Assembly (NCBI GenBank): GCA_963664305.2
Contig: CAXXLV010000002.1
Coordinates: 32,001-96,000, forward strand
Source: an uncultured Aliarcobacter sp.
GTDB taxonomy: Bacteria; Campylobacterota; Campylobacteria; Campylobacterales; Arcobacteraceae
DNA: 64,000 bases
Direction: 5' to 3'
The notes under the pieces: generated by a model
Seen by the model: the letters and a program-made list of their open reading frames with translations, nothing else
What the model was told of the DNA's origin: nothing
Database searches by the model: none
Made by a program: the position numbers and the translations under genes
Shown: piece after piece, positions 36,766 to 63,704 of the stretch
Layout of the letters: each line of letters opens with the position of its first letter
Numbering within the stretch: the first letter of the stretch is position 1

Positions 36766-36843
36766 ATGAATAGAATATTATTAGAAGATATAGAGATCAA
36801 ACCTTCAAAAGTTGTTTGTATAGGAAGAAATTATATGGATCAC
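36766..36843 (+). pseudogene. 5' fragment (26 codons) of the host FAH-family gene interrupted by the island
   Basis: MNRILLEDIEIKPSKVVCIGRNYMDH, homologous to the N-terminus of 42778..43398, then stops within the island end. Confidence 0.9.
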
Positions 36844-36859
36844 ACCCATTAGTTAGATA
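36844..36859 (+). repeat. Left terminal inverted repeat ACCCATTAGTTAGATA
   Basis: 14/16 match to the reverse complement of 63144..63159. Confidence 0.75.
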
Positions 36860-36947
36860 CATAAAACTTACACTCATTAGTATAAATTTTATGTACAATA
36901 GTTGATTTACTATGATAATATAGGGAAAATTATTTTTAGGATTTCCT

Positions 36948-38366
36948 ATGTTAAAAAATTTTATTACAAATTTAGAAATTTACACTCCCACAATTAAATC
37001 AAATAATAATCTCCCAATAGCTAACGAAAATGGTGAGGTCATTTATTATAAAAAGATTGAAAATAATAATGATGAATCAAACATCTATTATGAATTTCCT
37101 TTTGTAGTTAAAAGTGATGGAACTCTTTGGTATGAAGCTAATATGTATTTATTATGGAAAATTGATAATAATCCTACAATTGATCCCCAAACATTAAAAA
37201 ATCACTCTTTTTCATTGCAAGATTATATTAATTTTTGCGAGAGAGAAAATATTGATTGGAGTGTTGCAAAAAAAATTACATCTAGACCTAATTGGAAATA
37301 TAGAAAATATTTAGATGAAAGACTATTAAATGGTGAAATATGTCCAAATACACTGAAAAAAATTATTAGTCCCAATACATCTTTTTATAATTATATGATA
37401 GATGTTAGAGGACATTCTTTTGATGTTAAATTATTTAATTTAATAAAATCAACTATTTTCAATAAGAATAAGTATGGAAGAATTTTTCTCAAGGATGTAA
37501 ATTGTTATGATATTAATCAAGTTAATATATCTGTGAATCGTTATGATGAAAGTATAATAGATGATGGTAAAAAATTAAAACCATTGACTTATAAAGAGCA
37601 GAGTATTTTGTTTAATACATTAAGCATTTTAAATAATTATGAAATGAAATTGATTTTTCTTTTTTCAGTTCTTACTGGAGCTAGAATTGAAACAGTTCTT
37701 ACATTACGCTTGAAACATTTTGTTAATAGTTTACCTATAAATTATTCTGAGAATGAAATTTTAAAATGGCAAAATAATCAAGAAAAGTTTGATTCTATTT
37801 CAAAATATTTTTTACCTGTAGGTCCAGGAACAGGTGTAGATACTAAAAAAGATAATAATTATGATTTAGTTTTGTCAAAAAGATTAAAAGAATTAATCAT
37901 TACGTATATAATTTCTAAAACAGCATTTAATCGTAGAAGTAAAGCAAAGCCTCAATCTAGTGAATTAGAACAATATGTATTTCTTTCAAATAGAAGTAAC
38001 CCTTATTTTATATCATCTACTGATATACATAGAAAAGAAAATAAAAATAAAAATAAACAAAAAGGGGGAACAATAAATACTTTTATTTGCAATACTTTAA
38101 AACCTAAATTAAAAGAATTAAATAGATTTTTTCCTTTTCATTTTCATAACTTGAGAGCAACTTTTGCAATGAATTATCTGATAATAAATCAACCATTAGT
38201 AGATAAAGGAATGATGACTCAACTTCAATTAGCTTTAAATTTACAAAAGTTAATGGGTCATAAAAAAATAACAAGCACCATGAAATATATTGATTATTAT
38301 AGTCTAACTAAAGATATAAATCAAGCTCATGACTTTCATGAAGAAAAACTTTTAAGTTGGTTATAA
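36948..38366 (+). CDS. Tyrosine recombinase (GinA-like)
   Basis: LTGARIE (R), HNLRAT (HxxR), LMGH...STMKY (H, Y): catalytic residues present. Confidence 0.88.
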   Translation: MLKNFITNLEIYTPTIKSNNNLPIANENGEVIYYKKIENNNDESNIYYEFPFVVKSDGTLWYEANMYLLWKIDNNPTIDPQTLKNHSFSLQDYINFCERENIDWSVAKKITSRPNWKYRKYLDERLLNGEICPNTLKKIISPNTSFYNYMIDVRGHSFDVKLFNLIKSTIFNKNKYGRIFLKDVNCYDINQVNISVNRYDESIIDDGKKLKPLTYKEQSILFNTLSILNNYEMKLIFLFSVLTGARIETVLTLRLKHFVNSLPINYSENEILKWQNNQEKFDSISKYFLPVGPGTGVDTKKDNNYDLVLSKRLKELIITYIISKTAFNRRSKAKPQSSELEQYVFLSNRSNPYFISSTDIHRKENKNKNKQKGGTINTFICNTLKPKLKELNRFFPFHFHNLRATFAMNYLIINQPLVDKGMMTQLQLALNLQKLMGHKKITSTMKYIDYYSLTKDINQAHDFHEEKLLSWL

Positions 38367-38367
38367 A

Positions 38368-40332
38368 ATGAAGAATAAAAAATATTTTAATATAGAAAAT
38401 TTGACGGAAATTCACACATTATATATAAATTATGATGAGTTATTAAATATGATTATTGATGAAGAACGTAAAAATATTGATTATTCACGTATTGGATTAA
38501 TGTATAAAAAATTAAGAATCAATTTATCTCATATTATGTATAAAAAAGTTGTTAAAAAAACTTACGGTAATAAAGGGGCTAAATATTTTGTAGATTTAGA
38601 AACTTTAAATAGTAAAAATTCAAAAATAATTGATGATTTAATAAAAATGCTTTGTCAATATAACATATGTAATCCAATAAAAAATATTAATTCTATAAAG
38701 AATATTATAAATAGTGTACTATATTTTATTAATTGGATTAATGAACAATCCAAAGATTATCCTATTATATTGGATGAAGGAATTAATTGTTTTATAGAGT
38801 ATAAAATATATTTAAGAAGTTTAATTAAAAATAATTTAATTGTTTCTACTACTGCACATTTTAGAAGTGTATGGGCATTGAAATTATTAGAAATTTCAGT
38901 AAATGATAATGAAGGAATAATATCAAAAGATATCAATGTTATAAAAGGGAAGGAAATTAAAAATAATGATTTCTCAATCACTACGAAGTCTGAAAAAGAA
39001 TTTGAATATGTATTTGCTTTTTATTATAATTTTTTCAATCAAGTTAGTGATTTCTTACTTGAAAAAAGATCTTATCCCTATTCAATTTCATTACCAAGAG
39101 GTCCTGCAACCATAATTCCAAGTTTAAAAGCAAAAGTTATCCCTTCATATCAAGAATATGGTAATAATAATATTGCAATTGATCATTATGATGGTCATAT
39201 ATTAAATGATCATGAAATTGAATTAATAACATCTGAATTAAAAGGAAAAGAACGTTGGAATAAGAAAAGTAGTATTAAAGTTGCAAGGAATAAGCTATTA
39301 CTATTATTATCAGAAGTTAATGAACAATTTAATCATGAACATAGACTTTCCCTTTCCAAAAGAGCAATGGATGCCTGGTATATGATTATGCTTGCAATTA
39401 CTGGTACTAATGAATCTTCATTAGGTAAATTAAAGTGGAATAATAAGTTTTGTATTACAAGAGATGAATATAATTTTTTAGCTATAAAAAGTAGAGCTAA
39501 TAATAAAAAAGTTCTTTTCAAAATTAGAAAAGGATTTAAAAAAGCATTTGAAAAGTTTCTTAAATTACGTGAATTTGCTTTAAATGGTTATAGTTGTGAA
39601 TATTTATTTTTTGGTGGATATTCTGAAAATTCAAAAATTGTTCAAAATCAAATTGAGGGTTCTCGGGCAGCTGAAATTTATAAAACATTTCTATCTATAG
39701 ATAATAAACTACCCCGTATTTTATCAAGAGATTTTCGTAAAGATTATGGGAATGATTTTTATAAGACAAAGGGTTTAATTGTTGCTTCTGTTGCTCTACA
39801 ACATGATCTCAGTACACATTTACAGCATTATTCTGGTGAAACAAAAGAAGAAAAAGCAAAACAAATAGAAAATTTTTTTGCATCAGTACATACAACAGTT
39901 ACAAATGATATTAATAAAAATATTCAAAAAACTGCATCAGGAAATTGTGATTGTATAGAGGAATTAACACCTGAAATAATAATTGAACAAGATCTAGAAA
40001 TAGAACTTGAATGTATGGATCAAAAAAGTTGTTTGTGGTGTGTGCATTATAGAATTCATAATAATGAAGAAGATATTAGAAAATTGATGAGTATTAAGTA
40101 TATTGTTATAGAGATTTCTTTATCAAGGGCTGAAAATAAAGAACATTATAAAAAAGTTATAAATCCTTGGTTAAATCGTATTGAAATGATATGTAAAGAA
40201 ATGATTAGCTTAGATTCAAATTCAAAACTATTAATAAATAAAATATGGGAAGAAGTAAAATATGAAGGCAAGCTTACTCCATATTGGTTAAGATGGTTAG
40301 ATTTATTAGATGAGTTAGGAGTTTTAAAATGA
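38368..40332 (+). CDS. Degenerate tyrosine-recombinase-fold protein (GinB-like)
   Basis: ITGTNES in place of TGxR, SRDFRK, LQH...LQHYS; C-terminal Cys cluster (GNCDC, CLWC). Confidence 0.65.
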   Translation: MKNKKYFNIENLTEIHTLYINYDELLNMIIDEERKNIDYSRIGLMYKKLRINLSHIMYKKVVKKTYGNKGAKYFVDLETLNSKNSKIIDDLIKMLCQYNICNPIKNINSIKNIINSVLYFINWINEQSKDYPIILDEGINCFIEYKIYLRSLIKNNLIVSTTAHFRSVWALKLLEISVNDNEGIISKDINVIKGKEIKNNDFSITTKSEKEFEYVFAFYYNFFNQVSDFLLEKRSYPYSISLPRGPATIIPSLKAKVIPSYQEYGNNNIAIDHYDGHILNDHEIELITSELKGKERWNKKSSIKVARNKLLLLLSEVNEQFNHEHRLSLSKRAMDAWYMIMLAITGTNESSLGKLKWNNKFCITRDEYNFLAIKSRANNKKVLFKIRKGFKKAFEKFLKLREFALNGYSCEYLFFGGYSENSKIVQNQIEGSRAAEIYKTFLSIDNKLPRILSRDFRKDYGNDFYKTKGLIVASVALQHDLSTHLQHYSGETKEEKAKQIENFFASVHTTVTNDINKNIQKTASGNCDCIEELTPEIIIEQDLEIELECMDQKSCLWCVHYRIHNNEEDIRKLMSIKYIVIEISLSRAENKEHYKKVINPWLNRIEMICKEMISLDSNSKLLINKIWEEVKYEGKLTPYWLRWLDLLDELGVLK

Positions 40333-42357
40333 TTGTAGAAAATTATCCTTTTTATGATTTTGAAGATATTGAAGATTTAAGAAATCCTGATAAGTTATTT
40401 TCTGATTCATCAAAAAAATACATAGAACCTAAAGCGGATTTTGTAATTAGTAGAAACTCTTTAGGGGAAAAAATTTCTTCGTATGGAGATGATATTTGGG
40501 ATTTGACCCCCTTATTCAAGAAAAACTATAAATATTCATTTTGAAACGATTTTAGATGATGAACTAAAAAAAGAATCTAAACGTATTTTATTTATGTATT
40601 TATTTAAAACAGAAGGAAAAGGATCATCACATGTAAGTGGAGAAAGTTTAAATGGTGTTTATTTAATGGGAGTACGACCAATAATAGATTTTATTTTTCC
40701 TAAGAAATTCACACTTAAACAATTTTTTGAAAATGATAAATATATAAATGATTATTTAAAATATATAGAAAAAAATTGTTTATATATATGTATTCATTTT
40801 CAAATCATTTTGAATCTTTTAAATAAATTGAGAGTAGAACACAGTGGCATAAATTATAAAGAATCAAAAAATAATAATCAGAAATTAGCACAACTTATTA
40901 AAACTTATACTGATAATATGAATCAAACTGAAGTTATTCCAGTCGGAATTTATGTAAAAGCTGCACAAATGCGTTGGCAATATATTGAAGAAATAGAAAA
41001 AAATATTGGAAATATAGTTGGTTTTCTAAAAGAAATGATAGAAAATGAAAATTTTGCATATTCTACTAAAGGCTGCAAAATTGATAAAAATGGTAAAACA
41101 AAAAGATGGATACAAATAGAAAATTTTATTTCTTGGGGAGATGCTGTAAATAAGTATAATTTAAAAGATTTTTATGAAAAATATAATGTAGAATGTAGAC
41201 AACAAGTTCAAAAAATAATTAGATTGATTCAAGGTACATGTCGACATTTAATTCATATGTATACGGGGATGAGAGATAATGAGTGCAGAACTTTAGAAAG
41301 TGATTGTTTTCTTGAAGCAAATGATGAACTACCATGTAGAATACAAGGGATAGAGACCAAAATACATGGAAAATCTACAAAACAAGTATGGATTACGCAT
41401 TCTGAAATAAAAAGAGTAATTACTATTTTAAATCTTATAACTGAACCAATATATGAATTTTATACACCATACTTAACAAAAAAACCTTTAATTATTTCTC
41501 CTGGATTTTTATTAAATCAGAAAAGGAACAAATATTATGAATATCAAGCTTCAGTTGCACGAAGTCTTGGAAAACATAGTTTAAGTGAAATGAAATTAAA
41601 TAATGAACAAATTTCAGTTAAACAATCTCATATAGAAGATGAATTAATGGTGATTGATCCAATTCGTAATTGGACTAATCACAAATGGTTAAAAATTGGA
41701 AAAGCTTGGAATTTTACTTCTCATCAATATAGGAGAAGTTTAGCTGTGTATTCATTAGGAAGTGGTTTAGTTTCCATTTTTGCTTTAAAAGAACAATTTG
41801 GACATCTTTTATCAGATATGACAGAATACTATGGTAATGGATATTTAAAAGCAAAAAATATTTTAGGTATAGAAGATAAAGATCACATTGCAAATTATAT
41901 TAAACGTAATGCTATATATATTGAGGCTATGACTTTTACTAAGGAGGTACTATTATCTGATGAAATACTTTTTGGTGGGGGTGGGATTTTTTTTGATAAA
42001 TATCTAGTCGCAAAAACTCCTGAAGCAAAAAATGTAATTTTAAAAAATCTTTCATTAACAATAAAACAAGTTGAAAAAGGTGAATTACGTTGGCATTCCA
42101 CACCATTAGGTGGGTGTGTAACTTTAGATCCTTGTGATAAATATTTGATACCTACTTCTCTTTTTTCATGTATTAAATGTGAGTATTCTGTTCAAAAAAT
42201 TTCAAAAATTGAAAAAATCATAACATTACAAGAAAAATATATTAATGAGTTTGATATAAGAGATTTAAATTCTATAACACATAGAACAGAAGTTAAAAAA
42301 TTATCAGAATTAAAGAATTATTTAAATTTTTTAAAAGCAAAAGTAAAAATTAATTAA
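40329..42357 (+). pseudogene. Tyrosine recombinase (GinC-like) with a +1 frameshift
   Basis: ORFs 40329..40544 and 40594..42357 join into 675 aa if one C is removed from CCCCC at 40507-40511; YTGMRDNE, HQYRRS, FGH...TEYY motifs; C-terminal Cys cluster. Confidence 0.82.
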
Positions 42358-42368: not shown

Positions 42369-42725
42369 ATGTCAATTGAAGAAGAATATGAGGCTGCAAG
42401 ATTAAGAATTAAAAAAAATAAGCCACTAATAGTTCCAAAATTTACAAAAGTATCTTATGATTCAGTAGCTTTAGAAGCGGGAAAAAAAGAAGGTTCTATT
42501 AGAAAATCAAGATATCCAGAATTATATGAAAGAATTACAAAAGATAAAGAAGAGTATGAAACAAGTGAAGTAAATGAGTGTAAAGCTTTAAATAAAAGAT
42601 ATAGAAAAGATATTGAAGATTATAAAGTTAGATTGTCAGAAATGTATAATAGGGAGCTAATGTTATTAAAAAGATTAGAAGAATTGGAAAAGATTATTGA
42701 AAATTTTAATAAAAGAAATTTTTAA
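42369..42725 (+). CDS. Small HTH plus coiled-coil accessory protein (GinD/TnpC-like)
   Basis: SYDSVALEAG..GSIRKSRYPEL then a coiled coil; fourth gene of the module. Confidence 0.65.
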   Translation: MSIEEEYEAARLRIKKNKPLIVPKFTKVSYDSVALEAGKKEGSIRKSRYPELYERITKDKEEYETSEVNECKALNKRYRKDIEDYKVRLSEMYNRELMLLKRLEELEKIIENFNKRNF

Positions 42726-42777: not shown

Positions 42778-43398
42778 ATGAATTGTATAAATTTTAATAA
42801 TGAAAAGATCAATCCATCAAAAATAATATGTGTCGGAAGAAATTTTGTTGATCATATTACTGAATTGAACAATGAAATACCAGAAAATATGGTAATCTTT
42901 AATAAACCCAATTCTTCAATTTCTCAAGATCTATTTTATTTTTCTGAGGATACTCGATTTGAAGGAGAACTTTGCTTTTTAGTTGTAAATAAAAAAATAA
43001 CAGGTATAGGTTTTGGACTTGATTTAACTAAAGCAAATATACAAAATAAAATGAAAGAAAAGGGATTACCATGGGAAAGAGCAAAGTCGTTTAATGGTTC
43101 TGCTGTTTTTAGCAACTTCATTGAATTTGATGGTGATATGAAAAATTTAACATTTAAACTTTTTATAAATGAAAAACTTCAACAAGAAGGCAATTATGAA
43201 CTGATGATTTATAAACCTGAAATAATGGTTGAAGAAATTGAAACGTTTATGAGTATAGAAGATGGTGATATTATTATGAGTGGTACTCCTAAAGGAGTAG
43301 GAACTTATAAAGTTAATGATACCTTTAAATCTGTAATATATTATAAAGAAGAAATTTTAATAGAACATATTTGGGATGTAAAAAATAACAATAGTTAA
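42778..43398 (+). CDS. FAH family protein, intact island-borne homologue of the disrupted target gene
   Basis: KIICVGRNFVDH, FEGEL, GLDLT, GLPWERAKSF, DGDIIMSGTPKGVG. Confidence 0.92.
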   Translation: MNCINFNNEKINPSKIICVGRNFVDHITELNNEIPENMVIFNKPNSSISQDLFYFSEDTRFEGELCFLVVNKKITGIGFGLDLTKANIQNKMKEKGLPWERAKSFNGSAVFSNFIEFDGDMKNLTFKLFINEKLQQEGNYELMIYKPEIMVEEIETFMSIEDGDIIMSGTPKGVGTYKVNDTFKSVIYYKEEILIEHIWDVKNNNS

Positions 43399-43484
43399 TT
43401 AGAAGTCATAAAATTACATTATTTAAATTAAACAGTTAATTAGAGTTTAATATTTTTTAAATAAAAGAAATTAGTCTATATTTT

Positions 43485-44588
43485 GAGACCGTTAAATATT
43501 CCGTGTCAAAGTAATTCTGATAGGAGAAATCCTATCACACATGAACTTAAATTTTAAGTTCACTATCCAGTCTACCCTCGAAAAATATTGCCAGTTGTGA
43601 AAGTGTTAAACTCCAATTCCATACTGGCATTGTCCATTTTTTCTCAGCATTTTTTATTCCCATAAAAAGCAATTTTAGCAAAGAATTATCATTTGGAAAT
43701 GCACCTTTAGTCTTAGTTAGTTTCCTAAATTGTCTATGTACTGATTCAATTAAATTTGTTGTATTTGTAAGATTTAATTTCTTGTGATTTTTATAGATAA
43801 AAAGATATGGCAAATTATTTCTAATACTACGATAAGCAGCTACAAGTTTTTTTGAGTAAAAAAATATTTTTGACTATCTGGATGAAGAGTAATTTCATTA
43901 AGGAAATCTTTATATTTGATATACCAAATATCTAATGCTTTTATAAATCTACTCTCATCACTATATTTCAATCTAGTCACAATTTTCTTTAACTCTTGGC
44001 TAGCTTCTAGTTTTAGATGTAATGTTATATATCTTTGAATAATACGTTTCTGGTAAAAATGACTCATTTGTACAGGATAATCTTTAAATACGTTAGATAC
44101 CCCTCTTTTACCATCTATTGTTACAGATAAAATTGTATATCCTAGATTCAATAGTTCTATTAATAAATATTTATAATCATCTAATCTTTCTGTTTGTATA
44201 TGTTTCCAAATTAGAATCTCATGGGGGGAAGGCTGTCCATAAAAACTAAAGTACCTAACTTATCTTTTCTTTTACTATAGAAGGTTGTATCACATATTAA
44301 ATTTACTGGTCTTGGATTATGTACTTTTTCAATAGGAAGATATTCTTTAATTTTATAATGAACCCATTGTATAGATTTATTATATTTATCTGCTAAGTTT
44401 TGTAAAGATTGTCTATGATAAACATATTCTTTGAAAAGATGATTTTCTAGTTTTTCTGGTCATCTTTTTGATTGAAATTTTTACCACAATTATTACATTG
44501 ATAACGTTGAATTTCTTTTCTTTTACCAATCTTTTTTGTGTTTTTAGATAAACATTTTGGACATATTTAAGTGTTTTTTTACAGACAT
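43485..44588 (-). mobile_element. Decayed IS256-family transposase region (Zn-ribbon variant N-part, canonical IS256 C-part)
   Basis: CPKC...YQCNNC near 44560, [40 protein letters not shown]; several frameshifts; IS256-like end GAGACCGTTAAATATTCCGTGT at 43485. Confidence 0.75.
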
Positions 44589-44737
44589 CTGTAAATAATC
44601 CTTTTTAACTAACGATAGTACCGAAGTTTACTTAACTTTTTAGACCCTTTTTTAATTAATCCTTTTTTTATATTAACAGGAATAGATAATTATCTATATA
44701 GATGAAATGCCATTTTAAATAATAAACAAAATTTAAT

Positions 44738-44974
44738 CTATTTAACTAATATTTCAATATCAACATCTAAAATTTTTGAAATTTTATATAAATGTTCAAG
44801 ATTAAAATGCTTTTTATTTTTATATAGTTCAGCTGCAGATACTAGACTTACAGATTTATAATTCATTTCATAACTTAATTGTAATTGAGTTATACCTTTT
44901 ACTTCTCTATATTTCTTGACATTTTTACCAATTTTTATATAAAACTCTTCAATTTCATTTTTGGAAAAATTCAT
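44738..44974 (-). CDS. XRE-family HTH regulator
   Basis: IGKNVKKYRE.KGITQLQLS...NLEHLYKISKILDV. Confidence 0.85.
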   Translation of the reverse strand: MNFSKNEIEEFYIKIGKNVKKYREVKGITQLQLSYEMNYKSVSLVSAAELYKNKKHFNLEHLYKISKILDVDIEILVK

Positions 44975-45049
44975 TTAAACCTACTATAGTAATTTATTTT
45001 AAGTTTATTTGTTATAGAATTTTTCTTCAAACTACTATAGTGGGTTAAA
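44974..45049. promoter_or_regulatory. Divergent promoter region with two ACTATAGT palindromes
   Basis: TACTATAGTA at 44982-44991 and CTACTATAGTGG at 45032-45043. Confidence 0.6.
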
Positions 45050-45052
45050 AGA

Positions 45053-45667
45053 ATGGAAGAGATTTATAAAGCAGAATTTTTAGAAATACAATTAAAAATT
45101 TTAAAAGATACTATAAAAGATTTAGAAAAAATTTTATATTCCAATATACATAAAAATTCAAATACATATAAAGAACTTAAATTATATATTAATTCACTGA
45201 TTCAAGAAAAATATATTTATGAAAGAGAATTAAATTCCTCAAAAGAATTTTATTTAGAAAAATCAATTTCAACAATTAAAGTAAAGACTAAAATATTAGA
45301 TAATTTATTTAATATAAAAAAAACTTTTAAATGTCGTTCTATATCAGATACACTTGAACTACTTTTAGAGTTTTATATGGATGATAAATATTATGATCAA
45401 TTAAATGAAATTATGGAATGTGTTATTCCAAGTAAATTAGAAAGAAATTTAAATAAATCTTTTTTTTATATATGTAAATGTGAAAATATAGATTGTAAAG
45501 TAATTTACTTTATTGATGATGTAATAATTAAAAATGATACTAAATATTTAGACTTGAGAAAATTTAAATCATTTAAAAAATCAAATTTTGAAGAATATTT
45601 ATTTTCACCAAATCTTAATTTAGATGATTTGGATAATTTCTATAAAATACTTGCTGATTCATTTTGA
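45053..45667 (+). CDS. Hypothetical protein divergent from the XRE gene
   Basis: 204-aa ORF; no family recognised. Confidence 0.55.
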   Translation: MEEIYKAEFLEIQLKILKDTIKDLEKILYSNIHKNSNTYKELKLYINSLIQEKYIYERELNSSKEFYLEKSISTIKVKTKILDNLFNIKKTFKCRSISDTLELLLEFYMDDKYYDQLNEIMECVIPSKLERNLNKSFFYICKCENIDCKVIYFIDDVIIKNDTKYLDLRKFKSFKKSNFEEYLFSPNLNLDDLDNFYKILADSF

Positions 45668-47184: not shown

Positions 47185-47188
47185 TTTA

Positions 47189-54471: not shown

Positions 54472-57004
54472 TAGTATTTCCTTCAGGTAAGTTGTCTTGT
54501 ATTATTTCTTTCACTATTTCCTTTGGTTCAGTATTTAAAATTGTTTTAGTAACCTCAGGTATCAAAAGAATTTTTGTTTTATCAATAATTTGATTATCAA
54601 TTTTTTCTACTCTATTATTAAGTTTATTTTGCAAAGTAGGGCTTGTTGCTTTATCTAATTGATTTTGTACTGTATTCCTAGCTTTAACTCGGTCAATAAC
54701 ATTATTTACATTAGTTGATGTTTTTGTACCTGTTGAACCAATTCCCACAGATACAGCGGTTTGAGTCCAATCAATATTATCTACAATTTTTTTAATAGCC
54801 TCCGCTGGATTAGCTAGTAATTCTTGTCTTATTTGTTCATTATTAACCAATTGTGTAACAGTTTGGTTAAGTAAATCAGAACTAGCCGTAAATCCTGCAT
54901 TTTTAAGTGATAATTCCATACTCTTTTTAGTAATAGCTTCAGCAATATTTTTTACTACTTCTCTTCCACCTAAAGCAAGTTCACTAGCTTTTAAAGATAA
55001 TATCATATTATCCACTAACTTATTTGCGTCATCAACTTGTTGTTTTTGAGAAACATATATATTATCAAATTCTTCTTGACTTAATCCTCTTAAAGTACCA
55101 TCATTTATTACTTGTTTTAAAATTTCACTTTCTGTATTTCCTGTTTCTATCAATGCTTTTATTCTATCTTTTGCATTATCTGATTGTAAATCTTTTGTTC
55201 TATCCATATCTTGAAGCGTCCAGTAACTTTCGTCATCAATTCTTCCTTCACCACTATTTACCTTACTTGCATCTTGAAGATACAAACTTGTATTTGCTTT
55301 TAATGTATTTAAATCTTGATTTGTTACAACAATTTTATTCAATATAGGATTACTATTTAATTGAACATTATTATACACGTAAGAAGAAAAATCTAATCCA
55401 CTTGCTGAGTAATTACCAAATATATTCGCATATTCTTCTTGTAATTGTGTTGTATCTCTTAAGTAAGTTTCTCCTTGATTTTGTCTTACATGAGCTACTT
55501 CATGTCCTAGAGTGTTTGCAGAACTTAAAGCATTTTGATTTAAAATCTTATCTAAATATATATTTGAACTAGTACTATCTGCATTTGTATACGTTGAACC
55601 ATATTTTCCTAATAAAGCAACTTTTGCTGTTTCAATATTTATTCCATAAATATCTGCATAAATTTGAGCATAATCATTTACTGCATTGTCTATTTGTTCT
55701 TGAGAATAATTTTGTTGATTTTCCAAGATATTTATTGTTTGTCCATTATCTTTTAATGCTAGTGCTTTTTGTACATCTAAATCTTTTTGTACATCACCTA
55801 TATGATCAAATGTATCAGTAATTTTAAATGCATCAGAGGTTGCAACATCACCTATAGCTTGACCTAATCTTTTTGTTCTTTCTAAATCTTCTTTTATTTG
55901 CTTTCTACCATCTTCAGTTAAAAGTCTAGTATCTAATGTTGCATCTACTTTCGTTCCTGTTGAGCTTGAGTATAAATCTTTATTTATATTTTGTGTATCT
56001 GTATTTAATTTTGTTAAATCATCACTATTCTCTTTATCTTTTATAGTTATATTCCCTTGACCTAATGTTGCTAATGTTTTACTTACATTTACATCTAATC
56101 CTGTTGATGAGTTATATCCTACTGAAGATATTCCACCTTGTTGTGGTTCTTCTTTTTGATTTACTATTTTTGTACTACTTAAATTATAATTTAGATTTAA
56201 ACCTAAACTTTGATTTGAAGAGAAAGAAGAGTTTGACAAGTTTGAAAAAGTTAAAGTATTTGTTGATAAATTTAGATTTTTATTATCTACAAAGTTTTCA
56301 TTCTCATTATAATTTCCACTTGCTAACAAAGAACCTTTTAGATTAGTATTTTCACCAACATTTACATTTAGATTATTTGCAGTAACTGAACTCAACACTG
56401 TTTGTTTTGTTTGTGTTACTCCATTATTTACACTAAATCCTCCATTTACAGAACTTACTTTTCCTACATCTAAACTTGGTGTTCTATTTGCTGCTGCTCC
56501 TGCACTTCCAAATCCTAGTCCTGCATTTACATTAAATCCTTTTGAATTTGAAGAATATTCATCTCTTAGGGATTCTATATTTAAATTATTTCCTACATTT
56601 AAATTTAATGTATCATTTGCTCTTACATTTGCACCTACAAAGTTTGCATCATTTGAAACATTTATATTCATATTATTTGCTAATAATTGTGAGTTGTTAT
56701 TTATTATAGTATCACTTGAAGAATTACTTTTTCCATAACCCAACCCAGCGGTTCCACCACCACCTCCATACATTGTAAATGCTATACTTCCATTTATATT
56801 TTCACTATCATTTGTATTTGAGTAATTATCTTGACTTGCTTTTACATTTAAGTTATTTGTATTTATATATAAATTCTCATCTGCAACAACATTTGAACCT
56901 ACTATATTTGTATTTGTACTTAATTTTTCATCTGTATTTATATAAATATTTTTTGCATTTAGGTTTGACAATAGATTTTTATTTACTATTAGGTTTACAC
57001 TCAA
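54461..57004 (-). CDS. Orphan hemagglutinin-repeat toxin module 1 (CdiA/TpsA-like C-terminal part)
   Basis: Asn/Gly/Ser-rich hemagglutinin-type repeats, GHEVAH, GRIDD, variable tip; no N-terminal TPS domain. Confidence 0.78.
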   Translation of the reverse strand: MSVNLIVNKNLLSNLNAKNIYINTDEKLSTNTNIVGSNVVADENLYINTNNLNVKASQDNYSNTNDSENINGSIAFTMYGGGGGTAGLGYGKSNSSSDTIINNNSQLLANNMNINVSNDANFVGANVRANDTLNLNVGNNLNIESLRDEYSSNSKGFNVNAGLGFGSAGAAANRTPSLDVGKVSSVNGGFSVNNGVTQTKQTVLSSVTANNLNVNVGENTNLKGSLLASGNYNENENFVDNKNLNLSTNTLTFSNLSNSSFSSNQSLGLNLNYNLSSTKIVNQKEEPQQGGISSVGYNSSTGLDVNVSKTLATLGQGNITIKDKENSDDLTKLNTDTQNINKDLYSSSTGTKVDATLDTRLLTEDGRKQIKEDLERTKRLGQAIGDVATSDAFKITDTFDHIGDVQKDLDVQKALALKDNGQTINILENQQNYSQEQIDNAVNDYAQIYADIYGINIETAKVALLGKYGSTYTNADSTSSNIYLDKILNQNALSSANTLGHEVAHVRQNQGETYLRDTTQLQEEYANIFGNYSASGLDFSSYVYNNVQLNSNPILNKIVVTNQDLNTLKANTSLYLQDASKVNSGEGRIDDESYWTLQDMDRTKDLQSDNAKDRIKALIETGNTESEILKQVINDGTLRGLSQEEFDNIYVSQKQQVDDANKLVDNMILSLKASELALGGREVVKNIAEAITKKSMELSLKNAGFTASSDLLNQTVTQLVNNEQIRQELLANPAEAIKKIVDNIDWTQTAVSVGIGSTGTKTSTNVNNVIDRVKARNTVQNQLDKATSPTLQNKLNNRVEKIDNQIIDKTKILLIPEVTKTILNTEPKEIVKEIIQDNLPEGNTNEN
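55919..56865 (-). repeat. About 0.95 kb near-identical direct repeat (other copies about 53222..53959, 49032..49976, partial 46025..46101)
   Basis: Near-identical translated blocks; identical antisense 93-aa ORFs at 49178, 53369 and 56065. Confidence 0.92.
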
Positions 57005-57033
57005 TTTTTACCTCTACTTCTTGCTTTCATATG

Positions 57034-57059
57034 CGTTCCCAACGGGGACGTTGGGAACG
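57034..57059. repeat. REP-like GC-rich hairpin
   Basis: CGTTCCCAACG-GGGA-CGTTGGGAACG, perfect 11-bp stem. Confidence 0.7.
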
Positions 57060-57061
57060 AA

Positions 57062-57222
57062 AAAAAGTTTCCATTCTCATCATAGTTTCCACTTGCTATT
57101 ACTGAGCCTTTTAGGTGTGTATTATTTTCTACATTTACATTTATATCTTAGGCTTTGATATTTGCACCTTCTATTTTTCCATCATTAGATATATTTAGGT
57201 TTAATTTTTCTGATTGAACCAT
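57062..57222 (-). pseudogene. Degenerate hemagglutinin-repeat fragment
   Basis: MVQSEKLNLNISNDGKIEGANIKA*DINVNVENNTHLKGSVIASGNYDENGNF, similar to the repeat block. Confidence 0.6.
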
Positions 57223-57244
57223 ATAGACCTATATTCCTTTTGTA

Positions 57245-57436
57245 TTATCTATGTTTTTCATAAAGTTCCGAAAGTGGTATTTGTTTTGTAGGTGAAGAAG
57301 AATCATAATAATACCCTTTTTGAGGAGTGAAATTTTCATTACCACAACCAATAATACAAGAATAATATTGTGGTTCAGATTCAACACAACCACTAAATAT
57401 TATTACTGTTAATAAAATTAATATTAAATTTTTCAT
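57245..57436 (-). CDS. Small lipoprotein
   Basis: Signal peptide with FSGC lipobox. Confidence 0.55.
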   Translation of the reverse strand: MKNLILILLTVIIFSGCVESEPQYYSCIIGCGNENFTPQKGYYYDSSSPTKQIPLSELYEKHR

Positions 57437-57445
57437 ATTTTAAAT

Positions 57446-58147
57446 TTATTCATCCCAACCATCTTTTATATACAAACTATCAAGCATTCTTTTTGCTCTT
57501 TCTTGCAAGTCTTCATAAGTATAATCTTTTATTAAATCTAATGTCTCTTTGGGATAATCTATAGATTTGCTGTAAGTGAAAGTAATTACAACACCTTTAG
57601 CCATTGCTCTTTTTTTATTAAACTTATGACAATCATAAGTTTTAGATATTTCATTTTTTCTATTATCTTTTGTTTCTTTTACAATACAAATATAATTTTC
57701 TTTACCTTGTGTTTCATAATGAACATTAATATTTCCTTCTATATCATATTTTTTATTTATTCTATTTTTCATATTAGCTTTAAGATATGATTCATCTTTA
57801 TACTCTACTGCTCTCTCTTTATATTTATAAATAAATGTTGATACATAAATATGATATAAAATACCATGATTATCTAGATATACTCCCATATTTTTATTAT
57901 AAGAAGTTACACCTTCCCAACCATTCATTAAAGTAAAATCTTCCTCTTTTGCACTTGGCAAAGCAATAGTATAATCTGGCATATCAAACACATAATCTCT
58001 CATTGTCTCTACATTTGCTATTTTAAAATTACTTGGTGGTTTATTTCCACTTGAAGCTACAAATAGATTTTCTACAGTATTCTCTAAACTTTTTGGTGAA
58101 CATCCATTTAAGATAAAAACTATCATAAATAAAAAAATATATTTCAT
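57446..58147 (-). CDS. Lipoprotein, putative periplasmic immunity protein
   Basis: LNGC lipobox; tandem paralogue of 58147..58823; C-terminus DLQERAKRMLDSLYIKDGWDE. Confidence 0.65.
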   Translation of the reverse strand: MKYIFLFMIVFILNGCSPKSLENTVENLFVASSGNKPPSNFKIANVETMRDYVFDMPDYTIALPSAKEEDFTLMNGWEGVTSYNKNMGVYLDNHGILYHIYVSTFIYKYKERAVEYKDESYLKANMKNRINKKYDIEGNINVHYETQGKENYICIVKETKDNRKNEISKTYDCHKFNKKRAMAKGVVITFTYSKSIDYPKETLDLIKDYTYEDLQERAKRMLDSLYIKDGWDE

Positions 58148-58823
58148 TATTCATCCCAACCATCTTTTATATACAAACTATCAAGCATTCTTTTTGCTCT
58201 TTCTTGCAAGTCTTCGTAAGTATATTCTTTTGCTATATTTGGATTATTTGATCTATTATATGTTAAATTAATCCCAACAATTTTTGCCTTTGTTCGTGTA
58301 GTGTTAAACGTATAACATCCAAATGAAATTTTTTCCTTATTTTGATAAATATCTCTATTTGTTACTCCTTCCTTAACCTCACAAATATAATTTTCTTTGC
58401 CATGTCTTTGCAGTGATATATTCTTATTTGGGTAATATTTATGATAACGATTGTTTAAATATACTAAGTCTTCATTTTCAACAGCCCTCTCTCTTCATAT
58501 TTATAAATAGATGATGTTACATGTATATGATAAACAATGGAATCTTTTAAGCCTAATACGATGGTCTTTCCATCTCTCATACTCATACCATCCCATCCTC
58601 CCATCTTTGTAAAATCAGATTCCTTTGCCAATGGCAAAGAAAAAGAGAAATCTTTTGTATTAAAAACATAATCTTTCATAGTTTGAAGATTAGCTACTCT
58701 AAAAGATTGAGGAGGTTCATTACCACTTAATGAAATCATCATGTTTTCTACAGTATTATCTAAATTTTTTGGAGAGCAACCATTAAAAGTAAAAACTAGT
58801 ATAAATAAAATTATATATCTCAT
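58147..58823 (-). pseudogene. Paralogous lipoprotein with a frameshift
   Basis: FNGC lipobox; 3' ~70 nt identical to 57446..57515; frame broken in an (AG)n run near 58486-58494. Confidence 0.75.
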
Positions 58824-58955
58824 CTTTACTCTTTTGTCGTATCTAAAACAGTTTGTTTATTTTGCTGTGTAGATTCAGGTAATAAATTCATATTGATAGT
58901 TATTTGACCTTTTTCATTAGTGAAATTATTTTTATAATACTCAATTCTTGAATGT

Positions 58956-59008
58956 TGTCAAACGAAGTGTAAAAATAGGCAATTAAATTTTTAAAAAAGT
59001 TACCTTCT
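58956..59008 (-). repeat. 53-bp IS-end-like repeat beginning TGTCAAACGAAGTG
   Basis: Inverted partner of 47132..47184. Confidence 0.75.
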
Positions 59009-59013
59009 GAAAC

Positions 59014-59274
59014 TTAAACCACCTCAGTTTTTTCTACCATTTTGATTGAAGATTTTGCTCCAAATTTATAAATATCTGAATTTAAGATTCCCTGATTTTT
59101 TATATCTTTACTAACTTCAATAAGTTTCATTTCATAAACTTTATTTTCTTCTATTCTTTCATTTTTCTTTTGCTCTTCAAAATCTTTAATATTTTTATTT
59201 ATAACATTTGTTGCTATATCTGCATATGAAAAATTTAAAATAGTAAGTAACAATAATAAATATTTCTTTTTCAT
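59014..59274 (-). pseudogene. Probable truncated N-terminus of a TpsB (ShlB/FhaC/CdiB) transporter
   Basis: Signal peptide and a charged helix at the head of the toxin array, then truncation. Assignment is mostly positional. Confidence 0.35.
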
Positions 59275-59590
59275 TATTTCTCTTGTTTTACTTTAGATGA
59301 AATTGTAAAGAAAAGTCGTCACATATCGTGTCACAATTATTATTTTTTTATAAAATAATTAAATTTGATTTTAAATCATTAGTTTATTATTAAAAATATC
59401 TTAATTTTACTATACAAGCTTTTAGAATAAGTAAGTATCAAATGAGACCTAAATAAAAGAAAGATCATTATTAATCTTATGCATTTTTCAATCTATTATA
59501 AATATATACGAAAATTTCTTATACATTTTTCATTTATTAAACGAAAAACTTGTTTTTTTATTATCGCATAAAATATTGATTTTTTAGAAT

Positions 59591-59690
59591 ATTAAATATT
59601 TATAGTACCGAAAAACAGATGTTTTAAATAATTTCTTTTATGAATGATAAAATAAGAGTAAATTTAATACATTTAAATATTTGAAATAGC
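59591..59690 (+). repeat. 100-bp imperfect inverted repeat, partner 62619..62718
   Basis: Shared core GAAAAACAGATGTT..AAATAATTTCTTTTATGAATGATAAAA. Confidence 0.8.
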
Positions 59691-59699
59691 GTATTTATT

Positions 59700-60134
59700 T
59701 TAATTTTCTTCAACAATTATACAATTTGTTTTATAGTAATTCATATCTTCAATTAAAATATCAAATATATCATAAATATTTTTCATTCTTATATTTACAT
59801 AAAAATTTGATAAATTATCTGCATTATGGTTTAAATTTGGTTTGTTATTTGGTACATTACATATATTTTCTTCAAAGCTCCATATCGCATCTTTTATAGA
59901 CAACTTTGAAAGCTCATTTTTTATAGTTTTTAACTCATTTTTAAATTTTTCTAAATCTTCAAACTTTACACCATTTTTTTCATCATAATACAAATTATTC
60001 ATTACTATTGGAAATCTACTCCCCCATTTACTATTTTCCAATCTATAACAGATAGTTGAAAACCAAGAATATAATGTTTCAGAATAACCAAATTCCATCC
60101 AATCCGAATATATTTTAAACCCTACATTTTTCAT
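59700..60134 (-). CDS. Imm70 family immunity protein
   Basis: VGFK...LYSWFSTICYRLENSKWGSRFPIVMNNLY matches the Imm70 pattern as I recall it. Confidence 0.75.
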   Translation of the reverse strand: MKNVGFKIYSDWMEFGYSETLYSWFSTICYRLENSKWGSRFPIVMNNLYYDEKNGVKFEDLEKFKNELKTIKNELSKLSIKDAIWSFEENICNVPNNKPNLNHNADNLSNFYVNIRMKNIYDIFDILIEDMNYYKTNCIIVEEN

Positions 60135-60367
60135 TTATTTATCCTAATATTTGTCATACGAACAACATATTTTATTTGACAAAGCTCCAAAATAAAATAT
60201 TTTCTTATAATTTTGATGCCAATTTTTAAACTTCGTTTAACAACTGTATTTAAAATATCTGCTGTAGAACAAAACTTATCAATATAATTAGAAATCTCTA
60301 TATATTTATCATACTCTTCTTTACTACAAAAAGCTTTTGTACCAATTTGATATTCTTGTGTATCCAT
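60131..60367 (-). CDS. Small hypothetical protein or toxin remnant
   Basis: 78-aa ORF coupled to Imm70. Confidence 0.35.
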   Translation of the reverse strand: MDTQEYQIGTKAFCSKEEYDKYIEISNYIDKFCSTADILNTVVKRSLKIGIKIIRKYFILELCQIKYVVRMTNIRINK

Positions 60368-60370
60368 GTT

Positions 60371-61405
60371 TTAGTCTTTTAATTTATTTTTAAAATTATT
60401 TAACTCTTCTTCATATCTCTGTTTTATTTTTGGATGAAAATACTCTAATATTTCTTTTGGTTCTTTTTCTAAATTTTTGCATTCTTGTAACATTAAAGTT
60501 AATTGATAAAGCCAAATACTCTTTTCAAATACATTTACTATATAATCATCTAGCATTTGTTTTTCTTTTGTTTTTAAGTTTTTTAGTTCTTTTATTTTTG
60601 TTAGTAATAATTTATATTTTTCATCATTACAATATATTTGTCTTTTTTGAAGATATTCTTTATATGTAATAAATTTTAAAAAAAATAAAATTTCGTCATG
60701 AAGTGCTACAAGATTATTTTTATCTTGTTTATTTGCCAAAGGTAAGTATTTATCTCTAAATTGCTTATAATAAATATATATCTCATTTAAATCTTGTGTA
60801 TACCTATTTGAAACAAAAAATTCTTTGCTTAATAAACCTACTGTTTTATCATATTCATTTACTAAATCACTCATGAATTCAAATTTATAGTTTGTTACTC
60901 TTGGTACATCATAATTAAAATCATTTATTGCTAATCTTTTTATTTTATCAACTATTTCTTCATAATGTTTTTTATATTCTTCTTTTGTTAAAGTTGTTTT
61001 ATATGCCATTGACATATCATAATCATCTGGTATTTCTCCTATTCCATATATCCCTCTATAAAGTATCACATACCAATATACATCTTCTGCTGATGTTTCT
61101 GGAAGCAATGATTTTCCTTTTTCATACTCTTCATTCATCTTAGTTAATAATGGTCTCATCAAAAAATTATCATAATCTACAAAATTATGTATATGTGAAA
61201 TGTAATTTCTATATTCCATTGCTTTTATAAAATGTTCTGTTGCTTGTGGATTTGGAGATTTATCTAAGGGAAATTCATTTTTTGAGATTAAAGTTACATT
61301 TACTACATATTGAAAAGCATAACTAAGAGGAATTGACAATACTAAAATTAACATTACATATCTAAATTTTAATTTTTTAAATAATTCTCTAAACAAAAAA
61401 TTCAC
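60371..61405 (-). CDS. Membrane-anchored helical protein, possible immunity protein
   Basis: N-terminal TM; co-oriented with Imm70. Confidence 0.5.
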   Translation of the reverse strand: MNFLFRELFKKLKFRYVMLILVLSIPLSYAFQYVVNVTLISKNEFPLDKSPNPQATEHFIKAMEYRNYISHIHNFVDYDNFLMRPLLTKMNEEYEKGKSLLPETSAEDVYWYVILYRGIYGIGEIPDDYDMSMAYKTTLTKEEYKKHYEEIVDKIKRLAINDFNYDVPRVTNYKFEFMSDLVNEYDKTVGLLSKEFFVSNRYTQDLNEIYIYYKQFRDKYLPLANKQDKNNLVALHDEILFFLKFITYKEYLQKRQIYCNDEKYKLLLTKIKELKNLKTKEKQMLDDYIVNVFEKSIWLYQLTLMLQECKNLEKEPKEILEYFHPKIKQRYEEELNNFKNKLKD

Positions 61406-61792
61406 TTATTTCCTTTTAATTCAACTATGAATTTAAGATGAAATAATATTATCAAATAAAAAACTCACAAATTACTCTTTTTATAATTCAGAAATTAAAT
61501 TATAATTTTTTATTTAAAATTAATCTTATGTATTTTCAATCATTTATAAATATATACGAAAACTTGATATGATTTATCAACACTAAATAGGACAAAAAAT
61601 AAGTTATCAAAATGCTTGTTTCACAACCTGTAGATTGAGGAAGAAGCTGTTCAAAATTTTATGTTATATTTAGGGGAACCAGAATATTCATATCAGTTAG
61701 TATTTTTTACACTTCCAACAAATTTAAAATCATTTTTTATAAAAAATTTATAATTCATTATCAGTTTAAAGTATCTTTTGTCTTTTTTAGTA

Positions 61793-62356
61793 TTATCTTT
61801 TCCTGGTAATATATTTAGCATGCTGATTAAAAGATTTTAATAATTTTATATCTTTTTGTTTTAGTATATATGGTTTAAGTCTATCAATACCAAAATATTT
61901 AATAAGTAACATTAATCTTTTTTCATCCCAATTAAAAAGTATAATACTGATAAAATTTGGAATCTCATAAACATGACCATTTTCTACACTATAAAATAGT
62001 TCATTACCAAATACTTCTTTATCTAAAATTATTTGTTTTTGTTTTGTTTGTATAATCGGTTTTAGATATATATTCTCATTATTGGCATTTTTATTATTTG
62101 AAGTTCTTTTTTTTTGTTCATTAAATTCAAATCCATCTAAAAATTCTAAAAATTGGTCTTCTTTTTTTAATTTTATTAAAATTTGAACAAAATTCTCAAA
62201 TGAAATTTTTCCTGTTTGTTCAAAACTTTTATAAGTAGCATATTTAATTTCTATAAAATCTGAGAACTCTTCTTGCGTTAAATCTAAAGCAATTCGTTCT
62301 GCTCGTATTTTCTTACTTGCTAATTTTAAAATTTTAAGTGTAGTATTTAAAATCAT
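61793..62356 (-). CDS. XRE-family HTH protein with an extra C-terminal domain
   Basis: IRAERIALDLTQEEFS...TYKSFEQTGKISFENF. Confidence 0.75.
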   Translation of the reverse strand: MILNTTLKILKLASKKIRAERIALDLTQEEFSDFIEIKYATYKSFEQTGKISFENFVQILIKLKKEDQFLEFLDGFEFNEQKKRTSNNKNANNENIYLKPIIQTKQKQIILDKEVFGNELFYSVENGHVYEIPNFISIILFNWDEKRLMLLIKYFGIDRLKPYILKQKDIKLLKSFNQHAKYITRKR

Positions 62357-62618
62357 ATTTAAAACCTTATTTTTTTATTATAATTGCTATTACTATGTCA
62401 ATTATATATTAAATATATTATTTTATTTATTTAATTGATATTATTTTATCAATTATAATTAATTCATAAGTTAAATATTTTATTTCCATTAATAATATGT
62501 ATATATTTATATATTTAAGTATTATCATTTTAATAATTGGGCTACACTAAATTATACTCAGAAATAAATATTTCTCTTAAATGAACTATATAATTGGTAA
62601 AAATTAATAAAAAGATAT

Positions 62619-62718
62619 GCTATCTCAAATATTTAAATATATGAGAATTACTTTTCTTTTATCATTCATAAAAGAAATTATTTTTAACATCTGTTTTTCA
62701 GCACTGTAAATATTTAAT
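62619..62718 (-). repeat. 100-bp imperfect inverted repeat, partner 59591..59690
   Basis: Core also matches 2113..2138 near ssrA. Confidence 0.8.
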
Positions 62719-63038
62719 CTGATTACATTAAGTAGGACATAAAAAAATGATGGACAAATTGGTACAAATATGAGTTTAATATACGAAAGTTTAATAAACT
62801 GTTCTTTTGGGAGAATGTTCAAAAATTCAACTCTTTTTGAGAAAAACTTTTTGTTAGCAAAAATTGCTCAAAAAGTAAGAATTTAGGGAAGAAACTGCTC
62901 AGAGTTTTATATACTGGTTAACGTTGACAGATCAGGTTTTGTAATAATGATCAAATTAATTGGAATATATTTCAAATATTATTTGACAATATTGTTTTTT
63001 TTTGTTAGGATAAATGAACCTTAAATTATCGTAGTTTT

Positions 63039-63159
63039 AAAATGTACATTTTATATTAATAATTTGCACATTTTTAGATAAATTAATGTACATTTATAAA
63101 AATTTTTAAATTTGATTTTATCGGGTTTATGAAATGTACATTTTATTTAACTAATAGGT
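63039..63159. repeat. Right end of the island: three AATGTACATT palindromes plus terminal inverted repeat
   Basis: Boxes at 63041, 63085 and 63133; TATTTAACTAATAGGT at 63144..63159. Confidence 0.78.
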
Positions 63160-63167
63160 AATGTCTT

Positions 63168-63704
63168 ATTGCAGAACTTAACAATGAAGTTCCAGAAGAT
63201 ATGGTGTTTTTTATAAAACCAAATTCTGCAATTTCAGATAAATTAAATTTCCCACAAAATCAAAATTCTTGTCATTATGAAGCGGAAATTTCTTTTTTAA
63301 TTGAAGATGATAAAATCACTGGTGTTGGATTTGGTTTGGATTTGACATTAAGAGAAGTACAAAGTAAATTAAAAGAAAAAGGACTTCCTTGGGAAAGAGC
63401 AAAAGCATTTGATGGTTCAGCTGTTTTTTCTAAATTTGTAAGTTTTGCAGATGAAATTTCTAAATTAGGAATAGAGCTTTATATAAATGGAGAACTAAAA
63501 CAAAAAGGTGATTACTCTTTGATGATAAATAAACCAATCGATATTATAAAAGAGGCAAAAACTTTTTTAAGCTTTGAAGATGGAGATATTCTAATGAGTG
63601 GAACTCCAAAGGGAGTAGGGGCATTTAAAAAAGGTGATATTTTTCTTGGAAAGATACTTTTTGATGATAAAATTATATTAGAGCAAGAGTTTAAAGTCTT
63701 TTAG
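63168..63704 (+). pseudogene. 3' fragment (178 aa) of the interrupted host FAH-family gene
   Basis: IAELNNEVPEDMVFFIKPNS... continues exactly after MDH of 36766..36843, giving a 204-aa protein. Confidence 0.9.

Follow-up and report, generated by a model that had tools for sequence, protein, structure and literature searches.

Why should a mobile element that cuts a host gene in two carry a complete gene of the same family? The question is raised by a 64,000-nucleotide stretch of DNA from an uncultured Aliarcobacter sp. (contig CAXXLV010000002.1, positions 32,001–96,000, assembly GCA_963664305.2), called here the window, in which an FAH-family gene is split by an insert bearing four recombination-type genes, a full-length FAH-family gene and variable cargo. 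We propose that the insert is probably an element of the type represented by the integrative elements that circularize with a strand bias (SEs) and the GInts, that it entered a YcgM-like FAH-family gene behind codon 26, that its conserved unit consists of the recombinase module together with a foreign FAH gene, and that this copy most likely compensates for the gene that was broken.

The host gene is present in the window as two pieces:

36766..36843, plus strand, host FAH gene, 5′ fragment (codons 1–26), from translation, alignment to intact 204-aa alleles and synteny to locus L003 of a related genome
63168..63704, plus strand, host FAH gene, 3′ part (codons 27–204), open, from translation and a PF01557 match (E 2.6e-25)

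The left piece translates as MNRILLEDIEIKPSKVVCIGRNYMDH, followed by TH and a stop that lie inside the element, and the right piece translates as IAELNNEVPEDMVFF... to its own stop; two codons upstream of I27, its frame is closed by another stop. A 204-aa gene is cut after codon 26, and its two pieces are separated by 26,324 bp (63168−36843−1). Because stops close both reading frames at the breaks, neither junction rebuilds the gene; the 3′ part (178 codons) has no start or promoter of its own. An earlier note on this DNA had described both the 26,324-bp split of a 204-aa gene and the failure of either junction to restore it, and the translations, the Pfam matches and the stops agree with that description. 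The host gene (E 2.6e-25) and a second, complete gene internal to the insert (E 2.7e-26) both match the FAA_hydrolase family PF01557. The two scores reached with this profile, 93 and 89.8 bits, are above its cut-off of 23.9. With the YcgM-type model NF007967 of NCBIfam, the host pieces and the internal gene reach 116–117.5 bits, below the cut-off of 201, and the FAH assignment is for this reason one of superfamily level and not of equivalog level.

The C-terminal FAH part was used as query in 40 relatives, including 24 other genomes of the genus. Uninterrupted FAH alleles are present in 11 of these 24 genomes; nine of the 11 were printed as 204-aa open reading frames (ORFs), and all nine read ...GRNY(M/I/V)(D/E)HI(K/N)ELNNE... 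straight over the break position. In the other 13 genomes of the genus, no FAH gene was found with this query. Locus L003 of genome G019 is an empty site: its positions 2036–3531 align to 36842–35351 of the window with 86% identity, its positions 1204–2028 align to 64000–63174 with 85% identity, and seven unaligned bases separate the two aligned flanks. Relatives thus provide both the contiguous alleles and the empty site that the earlier note had proposed to look for.

Four co-oriented genes of 472, 654, 587 and 118 aa (36948–42725) start 105 bp into the insert:

36948..38366, plus strand, gene 1, putative tyrosine recombinase, IntA/GinA-like, 472 aa, from conserved residues and from the match of a relative's gene 1 to intA of plasmid pKA9-4
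38368..40332, plus strand, gene 2, occupying the Tfp/GinB position and encoding a large protein of recombinase-like type (654 aa), from homologues and motif blocks
40329..42357, plus strand, gene 3, putative large tyrosine recombinase, IntB/GinC-like, from homologue N-termini, conserved residues and a pKA9-4 match
42369..42725, plus strand, gene 4, small accessory protein, Srap/GinD-like, 118 aa, following gene 3 in all nine family loci with 37–44% identity

The product of gene 1 matches the Pfam Phage_integrase model with an E-value of 9.6e-5, under the cut-off. In an alignment with 14 homologues, its residues R254, K300, H400, R403, H438 and Y447 are kept in at least 90% of the sequences, and R227, K256, H377, R380, H404 and Y413 of protein 3 are conserved in the corresponding 14-sequence alignment. 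We read the R, K, HxxR, H and Y residues of both proteins from these alignments as their probable catalytic motif. In protein 2, the 14-sequence alignment displays (R/K)xxR, so that the His of HxxR is missing, and Q(N/H) in place of the residues of proteins 1 and 3; this protein has no sequence match in Pfam or the PDB and no BLAST match to Tfp of pKA9-4. Sequence searches of the PDB with protein 1, protein 2 and a protein-3 profile returned no recombinase. A scan of 36700–43700 gave 64 promoter-like sites against 58 expected, and no terminator on the plus strand.

Gene 3 is broken in the window by a frameshift at a run of C (about 40506–40511), which leaves two ORFs, 40329–40544 (71 aa) and 40594–42357. 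The N-termini of its homologues match frame 2 of the window and then frame 3, and the contigs of four sequencing runs (X3, X5, X6 and X12, described below) have one letter fewer at 40507 and read through. It may be that the gene is truly inactivated, that the tract is prone to slippage, or that the assembly is wrong at this point. The "three integrases" of the earlier note have therefore to be qualified: the four genes are there at 36948–42725, but protein 2 lacks the His of HxxR, and the frameshift in gene 3 had been missed.

The second FAH gene follows directly:

42778..43398, plus strand, full-length gene of the FAH family carried by the element (206 aa), separated from gene 4 by 52 bp and on the same strand (PF01557, E 2.7e-26)

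This gene is entire and has a start and an upstream region of its own; 5.9 kb separate it from the element's left end. It is 53% identical to the C-terminal part of the host gene and 62–70% identical to many FAH proteins of Sulfurimonas, Arcobacteraceae and other Campylobacterales; the closest sequences are P0002, a protein named as of A. butzleri (93%), and P0003 (81%). In a quick maximum-likelihood tree of 61 sequences (IQ-TREE), the host fragment falls inside the clade of the genus (SH-aLRT 100), and the carried gene forms with P0002 and P0003 a separate clade (SH-aLRT 98) among sequences of other Campylobacterales. Judged by identity and tree placement, the carried FAH is a xenologue of the split host gene, derived from another Campylobacterales lineage; the intact, diverged 206-aa gene that the earlier note had placed behind the four genes is there, and the tree that it had suggested sets it apart.

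Are the module and the FAH copy a unit? Among public sequencing runs, two contain the whole query and are probably its source, about 20 contain part of it, and the contigs of four (X3, X5, X6 and X12) were compared with the window over 30001–50000. In X5, X6 and X12, which are three isolates from three studies, contigs pass from the host gene left of FAH into 36766, cross the junction at the same FAH codon and extend over the module and the FAH copy as far as 43396. The stretch 36766–43396 is covered by one contig in X6, by two overlapping contigs in X5 and by two contigs 15 bases apart in X12. Its identity to the window is 93.5–95.3% (342 differences in 6,631 bases for X6), against 83–85% for the host flank; since the module is more alike than the flank, horizontal spread is indicated. 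The matching ends at the FAH stop codon (43396), from where the X5 contig jumps to 49262. Similarity is kept through the FAH copy and ends at its stop, and the copy is therefore part of the conserved module. The same FAH codon is the left-junction target in other hosts, and variable cargo begins behind the FAH copy. The view of the earlier note that the complete xenologue belongs to the mobility module is in this way borne out by isolates that conserve the two together at the same host codon.

The module also has more distant relatives. Of 184 genomes of the family, 10 have a homologue of protein 2; one of these is the window's own, and all others have at most 37% identity; at each of the nine other family loci, the four genes are collinear with 27–44% identity. 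A scan of one genome per species with the protein 3 alignment as query gave 14 loci with at most 40% identity, in Aliarcobacter, Poseidonibacter, Sulfurimonas, Elusimicrobiaceae, Flavobacteriaceae, Gracilibacteria and Gammaproteobacteria including Pseudomonas cremoricolorata, among others, and the four genes are collinear wherever the contig allows. A scan of JGI metagenomes gave a single locus of 23% identity. No close relative of the module was found in species-representative genomes or JGI metagenomes; such relatives were found only in the sequencing runs. In a sample of 401 Pseudomonadaceae genomes, 31 have a protein 3 homologue, and 29 of these loci were fetched.

Two peculiarities of related loci are recorded here. 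In L027 (G089, 2349–12226) and L031 (G021), the module and a YhcG/DUF1016 nuclease gene lie inside a Tn3-family transposase gene, whose N-terminal 796 aa end in the DDE domain, with a 262-aa C-terminal piece opposite and no transposase copy carried. In L034 (G048, 6966–7835) and L035 (G051), the two closest Aliarcobacter relatives, protein 2 is about 970 aa long and has an N-terminal extension with several tandem repeats of about 65 aa that are absent from the window's protein.

Does the pairing of a broken target with a carried copy occur with other genes? The 500 bp before gene 1 were compared with the ORFs in the 3 kb after gene 4 at 39 loci, the window included. Same-locus homology was detected at four of them, the window, L047, L029 and L061, a count that is a lower bound since the flank test misses short fragments. 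In L047 (P. cremoricolorata), gene 1 is adjoined by a Na+/H+ exchanger gene (PF00999) that lacks about 60 codons at its start; the first gene after gene 4 is a whole copy of 547 aa with 88% identity, and the missing 70 codons lie 37.6 kb away. In L029 (Aliarcobacter, G056), an 11.5-kb element interrupts a Maf gene (PF02545) near codon 150 and has a full copy, 78% identical, after gene 4. In L061 (G255), the break lies behind codon 122 of a glyoxalase-family gene of 131 aa, and a full copy with 74% identity follows gene 4. An exchanger piece is also found after gene 4 in L055; it is only 23% identical to the L047 gene. These loci support at least four independent target genes, to which the literature adds bcp (see below). 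By the earlier note's own terms, homologous modules at unrelated sites and with no FAH gene would have spoken against it. Among close relatives (~95% identity) the outcome is in its favour, as they have the same site and the FAH copy; distant ones (27–40%) have other sites and no FAH, but in four lineages the element holds a complete copy of the respective target gene.

In the two 5′-proximal insertions, the carried copy and the split gene point the same way; in the two 3′-proximal insertions, they point in opposite directions. This bears on the idea that the copy is a by-product or a tool, taken from the target of a former host by aberrant recombination or serving as an attachment site within the element or as a patch of homology for the exchange or entry of cargo. 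Such an origin would suit the stretch GATCATATT that the carried FAH retains in resemblance to the host site, the cargo variation that begins immediately behind the copy, and the statement that cargo capture by these elements is unknown (bioRxiv 10.1101/2024.06.12.598671). However, the orientation of the copy relative to module and host gene varies among the four cases, which argues against a simple junction by-product; the copy is also complete, with its own upstream region and at a distance from the left end, and it is behind the FAH stop codon, rather than at codon 26, that the variation starts. We consider this explanation very unlikely.

In the reading that we prefer and hold to be likely, the element has integrated site-specifically after codon 26, and the host FAH gene is inactivated by it. 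The conserved left-hand unit of the element is the four-gene module with a complete FAH from another Campylobacterales lineage, the cargo standing behind, and the carried FAH, supposing that it is expressed and active, would most likely supply the activity destroyed by the insertion. A conserved coding sequence would in this way be usable as an attachment site without cost to the host. Compensation would then be what selection maintains, and the present copy would still be mobile despite the frameshift in gene 3.

Several observations weigh against this reading. The absence of FAH from 13 of the 24 genomes of the genus means that its loss may cost little and that compensation may be unneeded. 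The frameshifted gene 3 may render this copy immobile, or may be an assembly error. The window's own score in the layout test, 35.8 bits, is within the cross-locus background (up to 38.1 bits). The carried-target layout is a minority trait, detected at about a tenth of the loci compared, and is not general; the first cargo genes at these loci are mostly of defence type. For three other first genes, a 4HBT thioesterase, a sulphur transporter and a 127-aa ORF, no split paralogue was found genome-wide. Finally, in L068 (G267, Pseudomonadaceae) the first gene after gene 4 is an endonuclease I gene (8511–9152), and the only other copy found in this genome lies 360 kb away, matched over residues 16–207 and open in that stretch.

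The last points are those expected if the carried FAH were ordinary cargo, homologous to the target by chance: most related elements have unrelated first genes, and the G267 element has its endonuclease I behind gene 4 with no split host copy nearby. Against coincidence, three other isolates preserve the FAH copy along with the module and have different cargo, and the target is the first gene for three unrelated genes elsewhere as well as for bcp in the Vibrio element SE-6283, so that a coincidence would have had to be repeated. We give it hardly any credence.

Endonuclease I genes occur elsewhere in this set. In L030 (G188), L033 (G110) and L036/L032 (G187), gene 1 is directly preceded by a complete endonuclease I gene, and behind the cargo lies a fragment of the host's C-terminal part (about aa 100–206), with an N-terminal fragment in one of the three genomes (G110). 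The copies of G110 and G188 are about 90% identical though their hosts belong to different genera, and endonuclease I is associated with two very distant modules, the Poseidonibacter type and L068 of Pseudomonadaceae. The Poseidonibacter-type endonuclease I was considered as a further example of the layout and left uncounted, as a carried whole gene and a junction hybrid are not distinguishable there.

To which known elements does the insert belong? A plasmid search with protein 3 of L047 gave a match on the tmexCD1 plasmid pKA9-4 (L098), and the second gene of the array on this plasmid has the protein ID that Idola et al. give for Tfp of SE-PaeBT2436. Genes 1, 3 and 4 of L047 match genes 1, 3 and 4 of pKA9-4 with E-values of 2e-32, 8e-30 and 1.5e-7, and genes 3 (E 3e-9) and 4 (33% identity, E 8e-12) of the window match their pKA9-4 counterparts; the identity to the SE-PaeBT2436-type module is 20–33% for genes 1, 3 and 4. 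At an E-value of 1e-3, the window's gene 1 has no match on pKA9-4, and the second proteins of the window and of L047 have no tblastn match to it. On this plasmid, from Klebsiella, the tmexCD1 tigecycline-efflux cluster lies directly behind the four-gene module (L098, 2434–13380), and the third gene, for which the annotation says no more than hypothetical protein, can be aligned with this family's large recombinase.

The order intA-tfp-intB-srap at one end of SEs and the sizes of these genes fit the window's module. IntA and IntB of SEs have an RHRY motif and Tfp does not, as is the case for proteins 1 and 3 of the window, with the motif, and for protein 2, without it. In GInts (ginABCD, PMC5385486), three recombinase-type genes and a small gene likewise stand at one end with the cargo right after the fourth, and the opposite end, short and rich in AT, contains conserved stretches, as in the window. 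These elements are described as highly specific in their insertion, often at gene ends (PMC5385486). They differ in that the degenerate protein is the third, GinC (PMC5385486, PMC10214605), whereas in the window it is the second. GInts are flanked by imperfect direct repeats of 10–11 nt; at the window's junctions, the best register by eye has 5/11 matches, and such repeats are not evident. The GInt1 attB motif of the bioRxiv paper, searched in all loci, gave one irrelevant match. We therefore place the element in the SE/GInt type, leaning towards SE because proteins 1 and 3 have the full motif and protein 2 is degenerate, a lean drawn from sequence features in which the named GInt proteins were compared by description only.

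The ends of the element have the following features:

36844..36859, no strand, left terminal imperfect inverted repeat, ACCCATTAGTTAGATA, identified by eye and as direct repeat D1
63041..63143, no strand, AT-rich right end with three exact AATGTACATTT boxes (63041, 63085 and 63133), in the last 120 bp, from a search of the window
63144..63159, no strand, right terminal imperfect inverted repeat, TATTTAACTAATAGGT, identified by eye
63160..63167, no strand, eight bases AATGTCTT that separate the right repeat from the point where the host frame resumes, from the sequence

The terminal repeats are 16 bp long with 14/16 bases complementary and lie 1 and 8 bases away from host sequence. A second box similar to the left repeat, ACACTCATTAGT, is found at 36870–36881; an automatic local alignment of the ends chose this second box over the first, and 1.7% of random island pairs scored as high. 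Exact matches to AATGTACAT in the 64-kb window are restricted to the three right-end boxes (family D2, with spacings of 44 and 48), and the AATGTACATTT boxes are candidate recombinase binding sites. The Aliarcobacter G056 element has a related ACCCTTTAGT end and three ATGGACAT/ATGTCCAT boxes at its right end. The repeat length fits the 13–19-bp imperfect terminal inverted repeats of SEs (motifs C and C′). SEs leave a 6-bp donor-derived footprint next to C′ in attR and make no target duplication; there is no target duplication at the junctions of the window either, and the eight bases AATGTCTT may represent a footprint of the donor site or may belong to the end of the element.

If these eight bases were left behind on excision, they would break the host frame, and this is one argument for seeing the carried FAH as a device of stabilisation: the element would destroy the host gene and hold the only working copy, so that its own loss would become costly. 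Addiction of this kind would also agree with the tight linkage of the copy to the module, with which it is conserved, and with the report that SEs and three of seven GInt strains generate no empty site (PMC10214605). Dependence of the host is doubtful, however, as FAH is missing from 13 of 24 genomes of the genus, and RME, an island in recA, restores its target upon excision (PMC4405046). No result separates addiction from simple compensation; we regard addiction as unlikely, though not to the degree of the two explanations discussed above.

The earlier note had taken the compensation strategy to be novel, and this claim is not supported, as the strategy is already in print for two Vibrio systems. 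SE-6283 (Tn6283) has bcp as its insertion site and brings along a homologue of that gene (Nonaka et al. 2022, PMC9345347), and this copy, VYA_19800, is located directly after the srap gene VYA_19790 (Idola et al. 2023, PMC10214605). The window's element resembles SE-6283, as far as it is described there, in the four-gene module at the left end, the site-specific insertion inside a small housekeeping-type gene, the target homologue behind the fourth gene, the short imperfect terminal inverted repeats and the lack of conjugation genes; it differs in its target, FAH as opposed to bcp, and in its host, Campylobacterota as opposed to Vibrio. The second system, RME of V. cholerae S24 (Rapa et al., PMC4405046), targets recA and carries a complete, divergent recA (23–24%), and its authors argue that a functional recA copy of its own avoids the cost of disruption; a similar 30-kb insert is described in recA of V. 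parahaemolyticus (PMC4334540). RME has in common with the element described here a site-specific insertion inside a gene and a complete divergent copy of that gene, and is distinguished by a phage integrase with an XerS-type recombinase, a recA copy at the end opposite the integrase and 9-bp inverted repeats. For GInts, Bardaji et al. record without comment that those of P. aeruginosa adjoin a duplicated RNR gene, and beyond this remark our literature searches gave no report of a carried target copy in GInts. The main text and one supplement of PMC5385486 contain no mention of Campylobacterota, and the terms Arcobacter, Campylobacter, Sulfurimonas, Epsilonproteobacteria, fumarylacetoacetate and "duplicated" do not occur in that supplement. 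What is new here is FAH as a target, Campylobacterota as the host phylum, and a layout that has arisen with several unrelated genes.

The layout is also to be set apart from a better known solution to the same problem. At phage attP sites in tRNA or icd genes, the displaced gene end is carried at the junction, and dusA-specific islands are said to be classical elements of the kind in which a partial duplicate restores the target. The element described here shares with these elements the use of a conserved gene as attachment site with its function kept, presumably in our case by the copy; it differs in that classical elements carry only the displaced gene end, whereas here the junctions are left unrebuilt and a whole separate gene is carried.

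The remaining parts of the locus are the cargo and the left host flank:

43399..63040, no strand, variable cargo, from Pfam and NCBIfam and from the coverage by contigs of other isolates, which falls after 43396
59700..60134, Imm70-type immunity gene, within the cargo, from Pfam/NCBIfam
35948..36751, plus strand, host flank, TauE/SafE-family exporter gene (Pfam PF01925, E 1.8e-50)

The cargo contains IS256-family transposase remnants, helix-turn-helix regulators, C-terminal ORFs with haemagglutinin repeats, the Imm70 gene and unknowns. Two adjacent fragments of an IS256-family (Mutator-type) transposase occupy 43547–44151, directly behind the carried FAH, where the cargo of the isolates diverges. 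Three minus-strand ORFs of 284, 636 and 847 aa at 49032–57004 start with haemagglutinin repeats (PF13332), each followed by small ORFs; together with the Imm70 gene, they look like an array of orphan toxin tips of contact-dependent inhibition with their immunity genes. The TauE/SafE gene is present in the window and in G019 and absent from L002 and L004, and the contigs of X5, X6 and X12 skip 35827–36766 and have 62 other letters instead, so that the gene is not at that position in these isolates. It is a small strain-variable insertion adjoining the FAH target.

What do these results mean for elements of this family? Whether a whole target xenologue as first gene behind the module is a general, repeatedly evolved design of SE/GInt-type elements is a tentative proposition, which we think somewhat less probable than its contrary. 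If it were true, the first cargo gene would predict the attachment site, conserved coding sequences would be colonisable across phyla, and hosts might depend on the carried copy. The practice of breaking a gene and bringing a spare is in any case not confined to Vibrio, as it is met in Campylobacterota, in genomes of the Pseudomonas family and in a second Aliarcobacter, and modules of this type are extended beyond the Gammaproteobacteria, to which SEs were assigned and in which alone tfp-srap/SE core blocks have been reported (PMC10214605). A rule for annotation follows: where a complete housekeeping-type gene stands after the fourth core gene, a split homologue should be sought in order to find the ends of the island. 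There is also a warning, since single-gene markers can be replaced by foreign alleles through such islands.

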